Positions 2,164-58,046 of a DNA stretch of 64,000 nt are shown piece by piece. A program made the translations under genes and the position numbers. Source of the DNA: Candidatus Saccharimonadales bacterium. GTDB lineage: Bacteria; Patescibacteriota; Saccharimonadia; Saccharimonadales; Saccharimonadaceae. Under the pieces are notes generated by a model, which saw only the letters and a program-made list of their open reading frames with translations, did no database searches and was not told the origin of the DNA. Position 1 is the stretch's first letter. Every line of letters starts with the position of its first letter. The stretch spans positions 197,486-261,485 of the forward strand of contig DASWYA010000001.1 of the NCBI GenBank assembly GCA_036405235.1, in the 5' to 3' direction.

Positions 2164-3105
2164 CTACTCCGACAAGATAGCGCGGACTTCGTCCGTGCTT
2201 TTTGTATGCATGAGTTTGTCGCGAAGTTCAGCAGCGCCTTCAAAGCTATTGACGTAGATCTTGAAGAAGCGTTTGAGTGTGTCGAACGGTCGCTTCGTGA
2301 GGTCGGAGTATTGATCGTATAGATCGAGCTGAGTTTTGAGTAATCCAAGAAGTTCTTCTTTTGTATGGAGTTTTGGCTCGTGTTCGAAAGCGTATGGATT
2401 GTGAAAAATACCGCGGCCTATCATGATGCCGTTAACGCCCGGATGTTCGGCGGCGATTTTTAAGCCTTGCTCTCTGTCTTCGATATCACCGTTAATAGTA
2501 AGTAGTGTGTTCGGTGCGACTTTGTCGCGAAGGGCGACAATCTCTGGGATTAGTTCAAAGTGTGCAGGCACTTTACTCATCTCTTTTTTAGTGCGCAAAT
2601 GAATAGTAAGATTCTCGATATTTTGCTCAAGCAGTACACGCAGCCAGTCTTGCCATTCATCGACGCGCGAGTAGCCGAGGCGAGTTTTTACAGAGATCGG
2701 AAGGCCACTAGATCTAGCAGCTTCGATCATTTGACACGCTACATCTGGTGTGCGAATCATACCTGCTCCGCCTCCGGCTTTTACAGCACTGGCATCTGGA
2801 CATCCCATGTTGATATCAATTCCCTTGAAGCCGAGATCCTTACAGTGAGCGGCTAGTTTTGCTATATCGTCAGGTATGGCGCCCCAGAGTTGGGCTACGA
2901 GGCTCGTTTCATCCTTGGTTTTAACAAGTCGTCCGCCAATCGCTTTTTCTCCAGCGTGTACCCAGCCGGTAGCATTGGTAAATTCACTAAAGTATAGATC
3001 TGGCGCTCCGGCTTTTTCTACGACATGACGAAAGACGACGTCAGTCACTGCCTCCATTGGAGCGAGGATAAAAAATGGTTGCGGAAGGTCGCGCCAGAAA
3101 GACAT
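2164..3105 (-). CDS. dus: tRNA-dihydrouridine synthase (Dus family, FMN TIM barrel)
   Basis: The 313-aa product contains LAPMEAVTDVVFR and GIDINMGCP motifs typical of Dus enzymes. Confidence 0.85.
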   Translation of the reverse strand: MSFWRDLPQPFFILAPMEAVTDVVFRHVVEKAGAPDLYFSEFTNATGWVHAGEKAIGGRLVKTKDETSLVAQLWGAIPDDIAKLAAHCKDLGFKGIDINMGCPDASAVKAGGGAGMIRTPDVACQMIEAARSSGLPISVKTRLGYSRVDEWQDWLRVLLEQNIENLTIHLRTKKEMSKVPAHFELIPEIVALRDKVAPNTLLTINGDIEDREQGLKIAAEHPGVNGIMIGRGIFHNPYAFEHEPKLHTKEELLGLLKTQLDLYDQYSDLTKRPFDTLKRFFKIYVNSFEGAAELRDKLMHTKSTDEVRAILSE

Positions 3106-3113
3106 ATTGGAGG

Positions 3114-3278
3114 TTATTCTACGCCTGGAATAATATCAGTGCCATCACGATTTTCGCCAAACTCTTCGTGAAGTGATTCGAGCACACTCACGGTCTTCCC
3201 GAGATTACGATGTTGCCGTGCGTCTGCAGAAAGGTCTACTCCACGCATTTCTTCGTCTTGTGTATGATATGCTTCCAT
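3114..3278 (-). CDS. Hypothetical 54-aa acidic protein, translationally coupled to dus
   Basis: This ORF is below the track cutoff. The ATG is at 3276-3278 and AGGAG at 3286-3290 lies 7 nt upstream. The TAA at 3114-3116 ends 8 nt before the dus ATG, which itself lacks an SD. The product is MEAYHTQDEEMRGVDLSADARQHRNLGKTVSVLESLHEEFGENRDGTDIIPGVE. Confidence 0.4.
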   Translation of the reverse strand: MEAYHTQDEEMRGVDLSADARQHRNLGKTVSVLESLHEEFGENRDGTDIIPGVE

Positions 3279-3329
3279 GGCATAACTCCTTTTGTGTATG
3301 TAGATTGTATTGAACCCTCAGTATATCAC

Positions 3330-3390
3330 GTATGATATGAAAGGAAAATCTCACAGAGCCCACGAAAATATTTCATGAAATCTGTGAGAT
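3330..3390 (-). terminator. Terminator-like hairpin at the 3' end of the structured RNA
   Basis: On the minus strand, AUCUCACAGA (3381-3390) pairs with UCUGUGAGAU (3348-3357) across a 23-nt loop, followed by UUUUCCUUUCAUAUCAU. Confidence 0.45.
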
Positions 3391-3822
3391 GACAGAGATG
3401 CTGTCTGAGGCGAGACGGTGAGTCTCGAGCCTCGGATGTTAGCAATGGCTTGAGATGCGGTGATTGTGAGACCACGGGCAAGGTGTTGTGACGAAGGGGG
3501 CTACGCCTTACACCCTGCCCGCGGCCGTTTTGGGGCGACGCCCCCTTATCCCTCCCAGCTCAGAGGGCGCCGCCTGATTGGGGTGGCGGGACCTGGTCTG
3601 CGGAACCAGATCCCGCCTGTTTCAGAGCTTTGGCGGCCGTAAGCCGACCATCTTCCCCGGTTTAGCCATGACGATCTGCGTAAGTCGTCATCGCTCTGAA
3701 ACATCCTCCGTTTCCGGAGGAGCATCTAAAGTATCTCTGTCATGTGCGTTGACAGGAGTACTCTATGTTGAAGCAAGAAGACGGTGATTCATACTGCAAC
3801 ATAGAGCACTCAACCACCAAAC
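3340..3822 (-). ncRNA. Unclassified large GC-rich structured RNA (core about 3389-3744)
   Basis: No credible CDS lies here. There is a consensus-like promoter upstream, many nested helices, one H-type pseudoknot candidate and a terminator-like hairpin downstream. RNase P CR-I, tmRNA T-arm/CCA, SRP and B12-box motifs were not found (see findings). Confidence 0.55.
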
Positions 3823-3828
3823 ATACTT

Positions 3829-3857
3829 ATTATATCGTAAAATAGACTAATCATCAA
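3829..3857 (-). promoter_or_regulatory. Sigma70-type promoter driving the structured RNA
   Basis: On the minus strand, -35 TTGATG (3852-3857), a 17-nt spacer and -10 TATAAT (3829-3834). The -35 lies within the last codons of the helicase gene. Confidence 0.5.
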
Positions 3858-6800
3858 GAGATGAGATAATATCATCTTCGAAAGCAAGGATTCCCTTATG
3901 ATTTTCTGGATACTTAGAGGTATCCGGCAGGTCGAGCGTGATGATCTTTTGCCATACCGCCTCTATGAGACGAGAAAAACGTGTCAATTCGTCTTTATCC
4001 CAGTCGATCTCTAGAGATACGATAGTGCCGCTTTCGGTTGGCTCAACAAACTGTAGATAAGACCTGTCGACTGTGTACGGGCTATAGTCTGCAGAGTGTT
4101 CGACAAGCAGTTTGTAAAACATTAGCTGCTGACGATATTTGTGAAGCTTAATCTTCTCAAAATCAGCCTTGCCTTTCCAGCTCAAGGATGGCTTACCAGT
4201 TTTGTAATCAACTACGGTGATCGACTTTGCTTCTTGATCGATATCGACCACGTCTAAGGTGCCAGTGAGTCGTGCATCTCCTACTCGACTTTGCTGGTAT
4301 GAAAAATTAAGTTCAGGAAGTTGTGTAGTGGTAAAGTTTTCATATTCATGACTTAAGAATTGTTGGAGATAGTCAACTCCTCGCTTGTGATAAAGATTGA
4401 AATCCCCTTCGCTTAGCTGAAAATCTGCCAGGTTTGCTTCAAAATCTATCAGCAAATCTTCGACCGGTCGACGCTTACCTGTGCTTACAAGATGAGAGTG
4501 TGCCCGCTGAAGGGTGCGATGAACAGCTGAGCCATATGCGGCATTTGGACTCATCGCCTGAGGAAATCTGAGTAGACTACCGAGCAAAAACGCTTCGGGG
4601 CCGCCGCGTGTTATGTCGAGGAATGTACCTAGGTGTGTTGCGCTGAGCTTGTATTTTTCGAGAGTTGAAGCAAGCAGTGTTTTCATGTCGCCACGAGGGA
4701 GTTCTGTGAGCGGCTGATGCCACGATGTCTGTATTTGCTCAATGCGAGCATCAACCGAGGATGCTTTCTCGGGCAAAAGAGTTGAGGCTTTTTCGGATAG
4801 AAAGCTTGCCACAAGTGTAGGACTTCCATTGTCGCTGGTGAGGCTGTATGAGACATGAAGATTAGATCTTGCTCTAGTCATTGCTACGAAAAAGAGCCGG
4901 AGGCGCTCATCATAGGTGTTCCCTGACGGAGCAAGCGGGAGATTTTCTGGATAGTTGATTGACCGAGACCGGCTTCGTACTCTTTCACCCCAAGTGCTGT
5001 CGATTGAGCCGTAGATATAGACGTGTTCAAACTCAAGACCTTTTGATTTATGTGCAGTCATGAGATGTATGTGGCTACTCATCTCGGCGCTTGGGCTTCT
5101 GGTGGAAGTAATGACTGAGCTGAGTTCTTTATGGAGGCGAATAAATTCAAGAAAGTCTACAAGTTTTGGCTTATCGGACGAGGCGTGCTCTCGGAGCTTG
5201 GTCCGAATAGTTCGAAGTGCCTCGAGATACTCTAGATAAGCTTCTGGTGTATCGTTCTGCTTTTGATTACCGAAGAAATAGCTATATAGTGGCGATGAGA
5301 AGTCTGAGGTATCGACATGTGGGGCGCCAGTAAGCTTGTCAAGCATGGGCTCAAGTGGCGTGATAAGACTCAGACTGGCTAGGCCGATGAGCCAAGTATG
5401 AAAATCTGCAAAATCTGGATTGTCGCTCATTATCTCGAGCCAAGATATTCGCTCTTTGGATGCTTTCAAGCTCAACTTCCAGAGTTTGGACGGCTCAATT
5501 CCCCAGGCAGGATGTGCTAAAAGATTTGGCAAAAGCGAATTCGCCGAGAGGAAGTCTGAAGTAGCGAGTGCGTGAACAATCTGAGCTAGCAGCTCTAGTT
5601 GTATGATAATGTCGCTTTCAAGCACATTGTCTCGTCGTTCGTAATTGACTGATAGATTATGGCGTGTTAGGTATGGCAGTAGATCGAGCAACTCTTGGTG
5701 TTTACGAGCAAGTACGGCTATTGATGAAGCTGCTACACCGGCATCTATTGATTCTCTTATGCTGCGAGCCAAGGAATCGCGTTCATCACTGGCCGTGTGA
5801 AATGATGTAAAGTTAACCTTACTTCCCTGATTTTCGTAGTGTGCTTTGAGTGTCTTGTCTAGTTCCGGTAGGTAATTCTCGAGTCTATCTTCTCCCTGCG
5901 TGATGACATCTCGTGCCGCATGGAGAATCTTGTCGGTTGAGCGATAGTTGTCAGTTAGAGTGATTACTCTGGTCGTTTCATAAAGATCTTTAAACTGCAG
6001 GATGTTGCTAATCTCGGCGCCTTGGAAACTATAGATCGCCTGATCATCATCGCCGACAACCATAATATTTGGCGCACCCTCACTTGCAGGACTATTTGCG
6101 AGACTGCGCAGCAAGCGCGACTGTGCAAGGTTTGTATCTTGGAATTCGTCAACCATGATGTAGAGATACTTTTCTTGTAAATTGTATCTGAGATCATCAA
6201 ATACCTCGAGCGCATGAACGACTCTCAGTACCATGTCGTCAAAATCGTAAAGTTCTTTTTCCTGCATGCGCATAAGGTACTGATAATAGATAAAGCTGAC
6301 TGCTCGGAGTTTCTTCGTGCGTTTTCGGTCTTTAAAAACGAATGCATCTTGATCATTTTTCTCAAGCCATTTATTCCTCCAGGCGGTAATTGGCTTAGTG
6401 GAGTCTGCTAGACGTGCGCTATCGACAGCATGGGAGATGCTGAGCGCTAGAGTATCGACAAGCGAGTTGATTTGCGGCGGGAGAGTGCCAAGCTTAAGGC
6501 TTGCAATACTGTGCGCAATAGGTACGAGCTCGTCGGCCGTTGTCTTTGAGATTCGGCGGGAAAAAACAGTTGCAAGCTCTGACTCGCAAGTATCAAGAAC
6601 ACGTTCATTATCATCAAGTACCTGGAGTAATTCATCGCTAGTTAAGCCGCTTTTTTTCAATTCTGATATAACTCGAATCGTATCGCTCAGATGTGTAAAT
6701 TCGCCGTTCATAGTGCTAGCGAGTGGATTTACGTGGTCAAGTTCTTCAAAGATGCCGCGTAGGATTTCGTAGACATTAAGATCGCTTGCTGGATGAAAAT

Positions 6801-7140: not shown

Positions 7141-8553
7141 TCAGAGCTTGAGTTCCTTGAATGCCTTGAGCATGATAGTGAGAAATAGTCGATAGTCTTG
7201 TTCTTGGGAGCCACTTACCTTTTTATACAAATATACTGTGTTGTCGGCGACTTCGATCGAAGCATTTGAGTCAGTATCGTAGAGATATGCCATAAATCCA
7301 GGATTGAGCAGCTCAAACGTAGCGAGTCTATCGGCATTGGTAGCGTAGACATCGTAACGTTTGTTGAAGTCGGGCCATTCAAATTCATACTTCTGGTAAT
7401 TGCCAGGCCGGCCGCTGCTCATTCTTTGCCAGAGGTTTTTGTCTCGCTCGATAATGATACCACCGTAACTTTTAGGTAGCTGTAGCTGAACAACGAGATA
7501 GTTTTCAGGCGCATCGTCGCTTGGGTTTGCTACGAAGGTGTAGAATTGCACCAGATGACCGCTATAGGTACCGATAACGTGATTATTTACATCGCTGGTG
7601 CCGAACTTGCCTTTTTTAAAGAGGACACCGCTCTTTGGTAAAAACAGCCAACCCATATCAAGGCTGTAGTACATATGATTATTTCGAGCAAAAGTTGCCA
7701 GCGCATTGTTGCTCGAGCGGATGTCTGCAGTAGATTGATCGATCCGGCCAAGCAGCCAGTTATCGCCAGAGCGGTTGAATGTCCAGTATTCTGTAAAAGA
7801 TCTGGAATCCTTGAACAGTTCGGTGTTCGAGGCGATATCAATTAAGCGATCGTCAGCTTTTGCTTCAAACGCAACGGTGAACGAATCTTGAGAGTTGTCT
7901 GTGTGGTCTTGAGCGTCAATGATGAGAGCATTTTGAATTGTTACATTGTCCATTTGGTTGCGTCTGCCAAGTTCGGCAAGAGCGCTAAGCATGAGCGCGG
8001 CATGCGTAGCGTATGAGGGTATCATGTATGAGTGCATACTTTGACCATTACCCGTCGACCAGTCAGCTTGATACTGCATAAAGGCGCTTTTTGCCTGTGC
8101 CAGTAGTTTCTCTTCATTCCAGGCACTATCGTTCTGTCCAGCTACGGCGATAGCTTGCTTGGTCTTGGCGGCTTGCTTCTTCAGTTGTTCCCATAGACTA
8201 AAGAACGCTGCGATCCAACCGGTCCATATTCCGGCAATGATAACAATCATTGCTAGTTCGCCAATAATCCCGATAAACCAGCCAACAACGAGCAAGACAA
8301 TACTAGCCAGAGAGGCAATGCTGGCGCTGACGATGAGTTCAGGGTTTCTCGGTAGTAACTTCTTTATCAATTTCCCTAGATAGTAGCTCGGGAAGTAGCC
8401 AATGAAAAAGAGCAGTAAGACAATTCCACCGCCTCCGCCGCCACCACCGGATCCTCCTCCGCCGCCTCCGCCACCGCCAGAGCCGCCTCCACCTCCGCGA
8501 GCGAATTGTTCTAGTAGCATGAAGAAATCAGACATAAGCATTGAAAGTATCAT
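7141..8553 (-). CDS. Membrane protein with an N-terminal poly-Gly tract, TM helices, a Tim44-like domain and a C-terminal DUF3137-like region
   Basis: The 470-aa product has GGGGGSGGGGGGGGGSGGGGGGGG near the N-terminus and 2-3 hydrophobic helices. The AKSAFMQYQADWSTGN...FTEYWTFNRSGDNWLLGRIDQ pattern is typical of Tim44-like domains. Confidence 0.6.
   Translation of the reverse strand: MILSMLMSDFFMLLEQFARGGGGGSGGGGGGGGGSGGGGGGGGIVLLLFFIGYFPSYYLGKLIKKLLPRNPELIVSASIASLASIVLLVVGWFIGIIGELAMIVIIAGIWTGWIAAFFSLWEQLKKQAAKTKQAIAVAGQNDSAWNEEKLLAQAKSAFMQYQADWSTGNGQSMHSYMIPSYATHAALMLSALAELGRRNQMDNVTIQNALIIDAQDHTDNSQDSFTVAFEAKADDRLIDIASNTELFKDSRSFTEYWTFNRSGDNWLLGRIDQSTADIRSSNNALATFARNNHMYYSLDMGWLFLPKSGVLFKKGKFGTSDVNNHVIGTYSGHLVQFYTFVANPSDDAPENYLVVQLQLPKSYGGIIIERDKNLWQRMSSGRPGNYQKYEFEWPDFNKRYDVYATNADRLATFELLNPGFMAYLYDTDSNASIEVADNTVYLYKKVSGSQEQDYRLFLTIMLKAFKELKL
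8425..8497 (-). repeat. Low-complexity (GGN)n tract encoding about 24 consecutive Gly/Ser residues
   Basis: The plus strand reads ccaccgcctccgccgccaccaccggatcctcctccgccgcctccgccaccgccagagccgcctccacctcc. Confidence 0.9.
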
Positions 8554-12945: not shown

Positions 12946-13100
12946 AAAAATAACTCCTTAATGTTCCAGACACTTGCTAGGACAAAGGAGCTTTTAGGTT
13001 CATTTATCTTCCCTGCTCTCACGCAGGCTAGAAGGGGCACCGAATTCAATCGGTTGCCGACAGATCATCGAGCTAGATCTCTCACTGTCTCTGGATAGTA
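12946..13100 (-). promoter_or_regulatory. SAM-I riboswitch (aptamer about 13003-13100) with an SD-sequestering expression platform
   Basis: The minus-strand RNA CUAUCCAGAGACAGUGAGAGAUCUAGCUCGAUGAUCUGUCGGCAACCGAUUGAAUUCGGUGCCCCUUCUAGCCUGCGUGAGAGCAGGGAAGAUAAA matches the SAM-I core elements AGAGA..CGAUGA..GGCAACC..GGUGCC..GAAGAUA. It lies directly upstream of metK. Confidence 0.8.
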
Positions 13101-13202
13101 TATTGTTAAAGTTTGTCTTCTAAGGATAGTATCACGAGGGATATAACTTCGCAATATCACCTCTGGAAGAACTGATGAGTATTCTATATAGTATATAGAC
13201 GT

Positions 13203-18595: not shown

Positions 18596-18670
18596 TGGCT
18601 GGGGTGGAGGGATTCGAACCCCCGAATGCCGGAACCAAAATCCGGTGCCTTACCACTTGGCGACACCCCA
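18596..18670 (-). tRNA. tRNA-Gln (anticodon UUG), CCA encoded
   Basis: The minus strand reads UGGGGUG UC GCCAAGUGGUAAGGC A CCGGA UUUUGGU UCCGG CAUUC GGGGG UUCGAAU CCCUC CACCCCA G CCA. This is a cloverleaf with U1-A72, as in bacterial tRNA-Gln. Confidence 0.93.
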
Positions 18671-41928: not shown

Positions 41929-42453
41929 TTATGCTGCTGCTTTAGCTTCTACGCCATCAAGTAGCGCGTGAAGATTGCCAGAAAGTGCGTTTGTAGTGTC
42001 GTGCACAGGGCTAAGTAGCTGTGCGACCACTTCTGCAATGAGTTGCTGTTTGCTCGGTAGACCGGCAAGTGCTTTTACGTCTGCTTCTGATTGTGCAAGA
42101 CCAGCGTCTGAGAAGCCACCGGCTAGTTCTAGGCTTGGATGAGTCTTTGCAAACTCGTTCAAGACCTTACTTGGTGCAACTTCATCACTTGAAGAAAATG
42201 CGTAAAGCAATTGACCTTCAAGCATTGATGTATCAGTACTTTTGAAAGTCTTGTCTTCAAGCATCGAAACGCGTACAAGTCGGTTTTTGACAACTCGAAT
42301 TGACACATCATTTGCACGAGCTTCTTTACGCAAGTTTTGCATGTCGGCTACGCTGAGGCCAGCGTAGCGAGCAAATGCAACTGCCTTCGCGTCTTTTAGC
42401 GCATCACTTAATTCGGCAACTAAAGCTTGTTTTTTATCACGTGTAATCGCCAT
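41929..42453 (-). CDS. rplJ: 50S ribosomal protein L10
   Basis: The 174-aa ORF lies immediately upstream of rplL and shows the typical L10 pattern. Confidence 0.9.
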   Translation of the reverse strand: MAITRDKKQALVAELSDALKDAKAVAFARYAGLSVADMQNLRKEARANDVSIRVVKNRLVRVSMLEDKTFKSTDTSMLEGQLLYAFSSSDEVAPSKVLNEFAKTHPSLELAGGFSDAGLAQSEADVKALAGLPSKQQLIAEVVAQLLSPVHDTTNALSGNLHALLDGVEAKAAA

Positions 42454-42612
42454 AAAATTCCTTTACTTTAGATTGATTTCGACCATATTGTTAAGGGTCG
42501 ACATCACAAGTGTGAAACAAGAGTATTGCCTCGGTAGCATGATTAAATCTGTTGATCGCTACTGTCTTTGGTAATGTCTATTGGATATTTTAGCAAAAAG
42601 AGGTTATTTTGT
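42454..42612 (-). promoter_or_regulatory. Possible structured L10 (rplJL) leader
   Basis: This 159-nt untranslated region has hairpins GUAGC...GCUAC and UCGACC...GGUCGA. The position matches that of known L10 leaders, but no motif-level match was made. Confidence 0.3.
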
Positions 42613-57971: not shown

Positions 57972-58046
57972 TGGCAGGGGTACTAGGAATCGAACCTAGG
58001 TCGTCGGTTTTGGAGACCGATATACTAACCGCTGTACTATACCCCT
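57972..58046 (-). tRNA. tRNA-Trp (anticodon CCA), CCA encoded
   Basis: The minus strand reads AGGGGUA UA GUACAGCGGUUAGUAU A UCGGU CUCCAAA ACCGA CGAC CUAGG UUCGAUU CCUAG UACCCCU G CCA. Confidence 0.93.

Follow-up and report, generated by a model that had tools for sequence, protein, structure and literature searches.

A 64,000-nucleotide (nt) stretch of the genome of a Candidatus Saccharimonadales bacterium (contig DASWYA010000001.1), called the window throughout, contains a 741-nt gap between addA, which encodes an AddA-type UvrD/PD-(D/E)XK helicase-nuclease, and dus, the gene of a tRNA-modifying enzyme. This gap is the region analysed here. It holds a highly structured RNA unit that is, on balance, probably a member without an open reading frame (ORF) of a new, clade-specific family of small-gene transcripts whose 5' and 3' ends are clamped together. 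Among the loci compared, the family is restricted to one Saccharimonadales subclade and always lies between addA and dus, and its frame is the only part that is conserved. Its architecture is reminiscent of type I toxin mRNAs, a class to which it very probably does not belong. The analysis establishes the boundaries of the unit, the structure and covariation of its frame, the variability of its cargo and the absence of an ORF from the window copy. A high guanine-plus-cytosine (GC) content and a very negative folding score pointed to an RNA unit; the striking core is its least conserved part.

A conserved frame between addA and dus

The relatives comprise 80 genome loci and 80 metagenome loci fetched via Dus, together with four closer loci (82-84% Dus identity) from a protein database, a total of 164 Saccharibacteria loci; codes such as L001 or L161 denote these fetched addA-dus loci. 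The highest Dus identity outside this genome is 84%. The addA-dus pairing is kept throughout Saccharibacteria, with gaps of 66 to about 2000 nt, and the unit always lies directly upstream of dus and on the same strand.

Upstream, each framed locus has its promoter at the stop of the helicase gene, then the motif GUUGAG and a long 5' hairpin. An earlier examination of the letters by a model (the sequence-only reading) had proposed a near-consensus minus-strand promoter, TTGATG-17-TATAAT, and this site indeed matches the sigma-70 consensus at 10 of 12 positions and overlaps the helicase stop codon (3849-3847). Promoters of the form TTGACR-17-TAtaaT occupy the same position in L001, L161 and L163. 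Transcription would start near 3822. An equivalent of the 5' hairpin, built from unrelated sequence, is present in 10 of 10 folded 5' modules, with z-scores from -3.0 to -6.8. A profile of the 5' module (nhmmer) matches the window with E = 5e-22, the window being one of its four seed sequences.

The key element of the frame is a long-range closing helix, 11 base pairs (bp) in the window, whose 3' strand lies 333 nt downstream of its partner. A blind search for the longest long-range complementarity in each locus, made independently of sequence similarity, returned a GACAG.../...CUGUC helix as the best one in 21 related loci and in the window. Covariation was assessed in 16 distinct loci by a gapless alignment anchored on the invariant CA/UG. 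Paired cells make up 92.9% (67% when shuffled), and compensatory changes occur at 12 of the 14 pairs. The covariation score is 0.71 as compared with 0.20 for shuffled alignments, a value that none of 500 shuffles reaches, and controls with slid strands give 0.07-0.24. The strands also fit their own partners (7.7 of 9 positions) better than those of other loci (4.5 of 9; 0 of 10,000 permutations).

Directly after the 3' strand of the closing helix begins a terminal hairpin with a U-rich tail. The sequence-only reading had called it terminator-like, and the hairpin is conserved and covarying in relatives. A simple terminator scan missed it, owing to the interruption in its stem, and it is classed as a terminator from the comparison with relatives, where the usual form is CGUCUCAC...GUGAGRCG followed by a U-run, the latter present in 11 of 18 aligned loci. 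A stable hairpin with an adjoining U-run is the form of an intrinsic (Rho-independent) terminator. Over the closing helix and this hairpin, RNAalifold predicts 27 pairs, 19 of them with compensatory changes. Many cells of the terminator hairpin are U-G, and these would be A.C mismatches on the opposite strand; the pairing is therefore one of RNA of the dus-sense strand. Minimum free energy (MFE) folds of the complete L161 (z = -13.8) and L163 (z = -10.2) units show the same layout as the window.

A further motif precedes the closing helix. Segment A mimics the beginning of the closing-helix 3' strand (C) and sits just before the 5' strand (B). It pairs with B over a mean of 6.8 bp within its own locus and 5.8 bp across loci (0 of 5000 permutations). 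Segment A might thus be an alternative, possibly co-transcriptional, partner of B; in the isolated 5' module of the window, the A-B hairpin is the MFE structure.

The 3' boundary of the unit is marked by a separate promoter for the downstream small ORF and dus, an extended -10 element that is identical in L001 (TGaTATACT) and has TATAAT-like counterparts at the equivalent place in L161, L163 and L006. The region appears to be one autonomous minus-strand transcription unit, from about 3822 to about 3340. The sequence-only reading had described a self-contained promoter-to-terminator unit, and this description holds, as both ends are conserved and supported by covariation in relatives.

Exchangeable cargo inside the frame

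What does the frame enclose? The catalogue of relatives comprises 20 entries (from the 21 framed loci, L104 and L111 are left out as exact duplicates, and L161 and L162 count as two). The framed interiors range from 333 nt in the window, the shortest framed member, to 750 nt, and whole units from 0.5 to 0.9 kb. An ORF led by a Shine-Dalgarno (SD) sequence is found inside the frame in 19 of the 20 relatives, nearly always of about 40-65 codons; L092 is the only ORF-less member besides the window. The encoded proteins belong to unrelated families, which include an AAKQAGS family, CxxCxGxG or zinc-ribbon-like proteins and a family with the signature KTxGKK..GNY..C..HTYYKK. The AAKQAGS family was recovered by jackhmmer from 37 loci and comprises 209 small proteins in a large database, where the few named ones are labelled hypothetical and come from Saccharibacteria; all significant AAKQAGS ORFs have the orientation of dus. 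No Pfam, PADLOC or PHROG family was found for the cargo proteins, which show a sub-threshold resemblance to DnaJ CxxCxGxG only. All 17 cargo proteins examined are hydrophilic (grand average of hydropathy -0.27 to -1.42), carry a net charge of +2 to +6 and are without a membrane segment.

RNA motifs are also part of the cargo. ARAGORN finds a tRNA or tRNA-like element in 7 of the 20 catalogued interiors, and a T-loop-like motif is present in 11; the tRNA or tRNA-like elements usually precede the ORF. The commonest interior 7-mers are the tRNA D-arm signature TGTAGCT, in 8 of 19 interiors (a count reached by 5 of 100 shuffled sets), and the SD sequence, in 7 of 19, also reached by only a minority of shuffled sets. 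A GGGGAAG motif is not enriched (6 of 19 interiors, with a shuffled maximum of 6-8). Eight framed units have an ORF but no tRNA (L002, L005, L017, L027, L052, L081, L089 and L163).

In at least seven relatives checked (L001, L006, L017, L052, L007, L002 and L161/L162), a hairpin that pairs the SD sequence with an anti-SD sequence lies directly upstream of the cargo ORF. Examples are CACCUC-GAGAG-GAGGUG in L001, CGCCUUC-GAA-GGAGGUG in L017, a 12-bp version in L007, and CCUCGAGAGGAGGUG, which L161 and L162 have at the same place. These last two loci are particularly informative. From the promoter up to and including the SD sequence and ATG they share about 98% identity; they cannot be aligned through the ORF and the downstream tRNA, and become identical again about 50 nt before the 3' strand. 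Since identity on both sides surrounds an unalignable ORF, the frame has stayed constant while its cargo was replaced from the start codon onwards. Natural competence is documented for Saccharibacteria (PMC10187176, PMC10633639), and homologous recombination via the conserved flanks would be a sufficient mechanism.

The tRNA-like elements inside frames (L161 1925-2035, also in L162; L001 about 2055-2175; L092 interior about 118-196) have a normal D-arm and T-arm, but their acceptor stem is lengthened (to 9 bp in L161), and the anticodon arm is replaced by a long insertion that contains a hairpin. The addA-dus gaps of relatives also hold tRNA-like genes that score highly and whose A34 anticodons are unusual (Val-AAC, Asp-AUC, Phe-AAA, Cys-ACA and Ala-AGC), and others with 'anticodons' of 2 or 4 nt. 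Several Rfam tRNA hits in these gaps are abnormally long (88-128 nt). Instead of decoding, such genes might serve as tRNA mimics, either as decoys or as processing signals.

More distant Saccharibacteria carry a different but analogous unit in the same gap (L022, 2330-2990, and 53 oral Nanosynbacter-type loci). Here the order is promoter, 5' hairpin, SD-sequestering hairpin, AAKQAGS-family ORF and tRNA-like element, the last with a match of 25 bits to the tmRNA tRNA-like domain, which falls short of the gathering score. Candidate pairings between the 5' and 3' parts are present, for instance AAACGCUUUUGUU/GACAAAGGCGUUU. A 92-nt block shared by L001 (2279-2370) and L156 (gap 432-522) is 91% identical, with diverged interiors around it, and contains a 17-bp hairpin, GGGUGCCGGCACC...GGUGCCGGCACCC. 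It points to an RNA element that some frames may conserve in the 5' part of their interior.

The window's interior and its possible origins

The interior of the window unit (GC 0.61) is much more GC-rich than its surroundings, as had been noted by eye: GC is 0.64-0.68 at 3425-3649 and 0.36-0.48 in the flanks. The predicted folding energy of the minus-strand RNA from 3830 to 3330 is -240.3 kcal/mol, whereas dinucleotide shuffles average -160.6 +/- 6.4 (z = -12.6); z is -8.0 for the plus strand and -8.9 for the interior alone. The interior is a string of long, near-perfect helices (11, 14, 13 and 17 bp). All helices listed by the sequence-only reading are present, among them the 5' hairpin, the 11-bp closing helix, the alternative local hairpin and the CCUCCG-GAAA-CGGAGG hairpin, and most are longer in the MFE fold: the 10-bp helix becomes one of 11 bp, and the 11-bp helix at 3510-3520/3476-3486 one of 17 bp. 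That reading had also seen an H-type pseudoknot. The complementarity behind it exists (3494-3507/3534-3547, 12 of 14 positions), but the MFE fold engages 3534-3546 in a helix with 3562-3574. For two stems as long as 14 and 17 bp, with connecting loops of 2-7 nt, simultaneous formation would be sterically implausible, and the complementarity is better read as an alternative pairing.

The interior contains no SD-led ORF of at least 20 amino acids (aa), in keeping with the earlier statement that there is no credible long coding sequence, and neither a tRNA-like element nor a T-loop motif was found there. The missing ORF is not an assembly artefact, because two more assemblies, built from separate sequencing runs, have the identical sequence at 3105-3900 (three datasets in all). 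There is an anti-SD/SD hairpin, located 12 nt after the 5' strand of the closing helix and followed by an ORF of nine codons. Past its UAA, the frame of this stub runs to a UGA at 3562-3560 and reads ..AAKALKQAGSGS.. / ..TAAKALKQAGSGSADQ.., where the stretch AAKALKQAGSGS recalls the AAKQAGS signature and may be a remnant of the small-protein gene of relatives. Thus, the window copy has the promoter at the addA stop, GUUGAG, the 5' hairpin, the closing helix and the terminator of the framed addA-dus units, but in place of an SD-led ORF for a basic protein of 40-65 aa it has the nine-codon stub only.

Does the core belong to a known RNA class? The sequence-only reading could not assign one, and this outcome is unchanged. 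With all 4227 models of Rfam 15, nothing reached the gathering score in the 651-nt stretch 3250-3900, and a permissive rescan (E <= 10) gave five chance-level hits of 11.6-18.3 bits, compared with gathering scores of 38-100. Families without a match include RF00010/11, RF00023, RF00169/RF01854, RF00174, the group I intron, the T-box and the ROOL, GOLLD, raiA, HEARO and OLE models. ARAGORN detects no tRNA or tmRNA in the region. A tmRNA is rejected, as tRNA-like domain, T-loop motif and suitable tag ORF are all missing from the window. Nor does the 333-nt core have a nucleotide relative in the 164 loci (nhmmer, blastn), where matches are limited to the 3' hairpin and the downstream promoter, or a match in phage and plasmid collections; it is single-copy in the window, and conservation is missing even among the loci that have this frame and a Dus of 82-84% identity. 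The covariation that the sequence-only reading had set as a check is seen in the outer frame. A large, conserved catalytic or ornate RNA on the scale of RNase P RNA or tmRNA is not supported, as the core is not conserved and relatives hold SD-led small protein genes and tRNA-like elements in its place. A full-text literature search found no published description of the locus or the frame.

How might such a frame work? In type I toxin mRNAs the SD sequence is sequestered, the 5' and 3' regions interact over a long distance, metastable hairpins form during transcription, and 3' processing brings about activation (PMC6733600). The frame matches these mRNAs in four features, namely a sequestered SD sequence, the 5'-3' interaction, an upstream element able to hold the 5' strand and great predicted stability, and a locked carrier transcript is proposed. 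A strong promoter would first yield the stable 5' hairpin; the GACAG strand would then pair with the CUGUC strand several hundred nt downstream, ahead of the terminator hairpin, which would clamp the two ends of the transcript to each other with a terminal hairpin on either side. During transcription, the upstream mimic of the 3' strand might hold the 5' strand. The resulting carrier would be nuclease-resistant and translationally locked, with its ribosome-binding site sequestered, and cargo would be released or activated by processing or unfolding, by analogy with hok and aapA-type mRNAs. In the window, the frame most likely surrounds a cargo cassette that has lost its coding capacity or never had any, and the transcript would act, if at all, as RNA only. 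We infer this mode of locking and stabilisation, as well as an origin of the interior by degeneration. A degenerated cassette is favoured by the SD stub and the weak trace of a protein gene; a functional RNA cargo is favoured by the strong structure, the recurrence of ORF-less units and the RNA cargo in frames.

Several points weigh against this interpretation. Transcription, transcript ends and any processing are predictions from the sequence. The lock mechanism is borrowed from toxin mRNAs, yet the cargo is hydrophilic and no antisense RNA is evident. The interior is more structured than expected of a decaying ORF (four helices of 11-17 bp), and the second ORF-less member, L092, could indicate that the RNA itself is functional. 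The SD hairpin of the window stands 12 nt after the closing helix, as compared with 180-430 nt in relatives, and may not be homologous to theirs. Lastly, the AAKQAGS match is weak: 2.2-4.8 bits with the hidden Markov model and an hhalign probability of 16% (P = 0.0016), with 49 of 2000 shuffles scoring at least as high as the window.

An alternative that we hold to be unlikely, though a serious one, is that the interior represents a functional stand-alone structured noncoding RNA (ncRNA) of a new class, which the frame merely expresses and which might serve in protein binding, as a decoy or as a scaffold. The folding score of the interior, its GC content of 0.61-0.68 against 0.36-0.48 in the flanks and the identical sequence in three datasets are consistent with this, as is the second ORF-less frame, and the tRNA or tRNA-like cargo in frames makes RNA-only cargo plausible. 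However, with no homologue in the 164 loci, phages, plasmids or the window, neither conservation nor covariation can be demonstrated for it; a simple string of near-perfect hairpins differs from the junction-rich, bulged folds of known large ncRNAs; and the SD hairpin with its stub ORF points to coding ancestry.

The flanking-stem geometry of the frame resembles that of rRNA-operon processing stems. Could the unit then be the remnant of a stable-RNA (tRNA) operon, with the closing helix as an RNase III-type processing stem and the tRNA cargo lost from the window lineage? The frequency of tRNA-like elements, T-loop-like motifs and TGTAGCT in the interiors is in line with this idea, as are ordinary tRNA genes in the same gap of more distant relatives. 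We nevertheless regard it as improbable, since many framed units have an ORF without a tRNA (eight loci, e.g. L002 and L163), stable-RNA operons are not characterised by SD/anti-SD hairpins or SD-led ORFs, and the window has no tRNA-like element. Still less probable is a long regulatory leader or attenuator of the small ORF and dus, perhaps one that senses tRNA through tRNA-like elements. The sequence-only reading had considered an unusually large leader, and the constant position directly upstream of dus, the tRNA-like elements of relatives and the terminal hairpin as a possible attenuator would suit one. The separate promoter after the terminator, in the window and in relatives, makes such a role unlikely; in addition, a sensor domain would have to be conserved and this interior is not, the unit codes for proteins in relatives, and the window is without a tRNA-like element.

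Very little speaks for a DNA-level element, in which GACAG.../...CUGUC inverted repeats would surround an invertible or mobile cassette (inverton, miniature inverted repeat transposable element (MITE) or integron-like). Inverted repeats do flank a hypervariable segment, and cargo differs between near-identical frames, but the borders of the L161/L162 swap are the start codon and a site about 50 nt before the 3' repeat rather than the repeats. The repeats covary, which a constant recombinase site would not, and the G-U asymmetry of the adjoining hairpin is a sign of RNA pairing. There is a single copy in the window, with no recombinase or transposase nearby, and all significant AAKQAGS ORFs are oriented as dus. 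For the swaps, homologous recombination in the naturally competent Saccharibacteria (PMC10187176) is a simpler explanation. Repetitive extragenic palindromic (REP), MITE and inverton repeat elements are rejected on the single copy in 64 kb, the lack of a recombinase nearby and the constant cargo orientation. The poorest candidate is a type I toxin-antitoxin locus with an inactivated toxin gene: the 5'-3' interaction, the SD-sequestering hairpin, the candidate metastable hairpin and the small ORFs of relatives recall one (PMC6733600), but none of the 17 proteins examined resembles a membrane toxin, a consensus scan, which cannot exclude such a site, found no plus-strand promoter-like site in 3340-3830, the antisense sites it gave in L161 and L163 are weak and inconsistent, toxin families are not normally interchangeable in one frame, and PADLOC gave no hits.

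All relevant genes are on the minus strand (Table 1), and the neighbours of the unit are addA, dus and ATP synthase genes. Upstream of the helicase gene, at 7141-8553 (minus), lies a gene for a protein of 470 aa that has a Tim44-like domain and matches DUF3137 weakly. A small acidic ORF of 54-81 aa with its own promoter always lies between the RNA unit and dus; its position is conserved and its sequence barely so, the sole tblastn match being L041 (40%), and no Pfam family was found for it. A plus-strand promoter-like site, TAGACT-16-GATAAT (with TG), is present at 3843-3870, antisense into the 3' end of the helicase gene. Elsewhere in the window, Rfam and ARAGORN identify four minus-strand RNAs.

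Table 1. Coordinates of the unit, its neighbours and related features (window positions unless a locus is named)
Feature	Position	Strand	Remarks
addA	7128-3847	minus	AddA-type UvrD/PD-(D/E)XK helicase-nuclease
Sigma-70-type promoter	3857-3829	minus	-35 TTGATG 3857-3852, 17-nt spacer, -10 TATAAT 3834-3829
5' leader motif GUUGAG	3814-3809	minus	common to relatives
Long 5' hairpin	3811-3797/3770-3756	minus	inner pairs up to 3788/3779; with the leader motif, 3756-3817
Segment A CUGUCA/start of segment B UGACAG	3755-3750/3742-3737	minus	local hairpin, MFE of isolated 5' module
Closing helix, 5' strand	3743-3733	minus	AUGACAGAGAU
Interior (cargo space)	3400-3732	minus	333 nt
Anti-SD/SD hairpin	3721-3704	minus	UCCUCCG-GAAA-CGGAGGA
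Interior helix	3703-3693/3628-3618	minus	11 bp
Nine-codon ORF	3691-3662	minus	MTTYADRHG then UAA (3664-3662); AUG at 3691, 13 nt after GGAGG
Interior helix	3691-3685/3674-3668	minus	
Interior helix	3617-3604/3598-3585	minus	14 bp
Interior helix	3574-3562/3546-3534	minus	13 bp, MFE fold
Interior helix	3526-3510/3486-3470	minus	17 bp
Interior helix	3433-3422/3416-3407	minus	
Closing helix, 3' strand	3399-3389	minus	AUCUCUGUCAU
Terminator hairpin	3390-3348, tail to 3338	minus	AUCUCACAGA..UCUGUGAGAU with inner stem, then UUUUCCUUUC
Extended -10 TGaTATACT	3318-3310	minus	promoter of small ORF and dus
Small acidic ORF	3278-3114	minus	54 aa, unannotated, downstream of RNA unit
Small acidic ORF, relatives	L161 2750-2995; L163 2787-2981; L001 2800-2991		
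dus	3105-2164	minus	tRNA-modifying enzyme
SAM-I riboswitch	13001-13101	minus	
Ribosomal protein L10 leader	42444-42589	minus	
tRNA-Gln(UUG)	18596-18670	minus	
tRNA-Trp(CCA)	57972-58046	minus	
Unusual tRNA-like genes, relatives	L009 2602-2675; L013 2712-2784; L015 2531-2604; L034 2261-2334; L037 466-538; L089 and L097 interiors; L093; L010 2536-2609; L011 2432-2505; L032 2653-2725		

Significance and comparison with known systems

Saccharibacteria have tiny genomes, with little room for non-functional DNA. In one subclade a structured, strongly promoted unit of 0.5-0.9 kb is nevertheless kept at a fixed site, where the outer frame stays and its content turns over. If the locked carrier exists, it would extend the clamp and SD-sequestration logic of toxin mRNAs to non-toxic proteins and RNA cargos. 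It would also mark the site as a hotspot at which an uncultivated lineage that depends on hosts innovates in small genes, and some two dozen covarying sequences would be available for a new RNA motif that Rfam lacks. A bolder and rather doubtful extension is that the frame is a dedicated RNA 'socket', an end-clamped, SD-locked platform into which competent Saccharibacteria swap small cargos. These would be zinc-ribbon-like and other small basic proteins, tRNA-like RNAs and pure hairpin RNAs such as that of the window, whose hairpin array would then be a functional cargo rather than debris. The socket would then be an RNA-level counterpart of the integron expression site, and the rapid turnover of cargo would reflect an arms race, e.g. 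with phages or with the Actinobacteria hosts of these epibionts.

How does the unit compare with what is known? The likeness to integron cassettes lies in a constant promoter and flank, exchangeable small genes at one chromosomal site and structured borders, but there is no integrase, the cassette is single and its borders do not coincide with the inverted repeats. The ornate ncRNAs (ROOL, GOLLD, OLE, raiA and HEARO) are also hundreds of nt long, GC-rich relative to their genomes, structured and sometimes beside tRNAs; they have conserved cores with covariation throughout, whereas here the outer frame alone is conserved. With tmRNA (RF00023) the unit shares a similar size, an end-to-end closing helix and GC-rich helices, and relatives add a small ORF and tRNA-like parts. 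Their ORFs, however, have an SD sequence and start codon of their own and 40-65 codons, and the interiors are not conserved. As in the processing stems of rRNA and tRNA precursors (RNase III substrates), a long-range helix flanks cargo, and many relatives have tRNA-like elements inside. Unlike those stems, the frame helix is short (9-17 bp), is placed between a 5' hairpin and a terminator and encloses SD-led ORFs, and the window is without a tRNA.

A further close parallel is the folding architecture of the type I toxin mRNAs, with hok of plasmid R1, aapA1 and aapA3 of Helicobacter pylori, and dinQ as examples (PMC6733600). Here as there, a stable small-ORF transcript is predicted, the SD sequence is trapped by an anti-SD sequence, the ends are clamped, and an upstream element is able to hold the 5' strand. 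The window has the SD/anti-SD hairpin (3721-3704) and the covarying 5'-3' closing helix, traits that alone do not amount to membership. In contrast to the toxin mRNAs, the framed cargo is hydrophilic and basic rather than a membrane toxin, there is no sign of an antisense antitoxin, cargos can be exchanged and often come with tRNA-like elements, and the window copy is ORF-less. The principle of clamped, SD-locked small-ORF mRNAs is thus already known; what appears to be new is exchangeable cargo, tRNA-like companions, non-toxic basic proteins and a fixed position between addA and dus.

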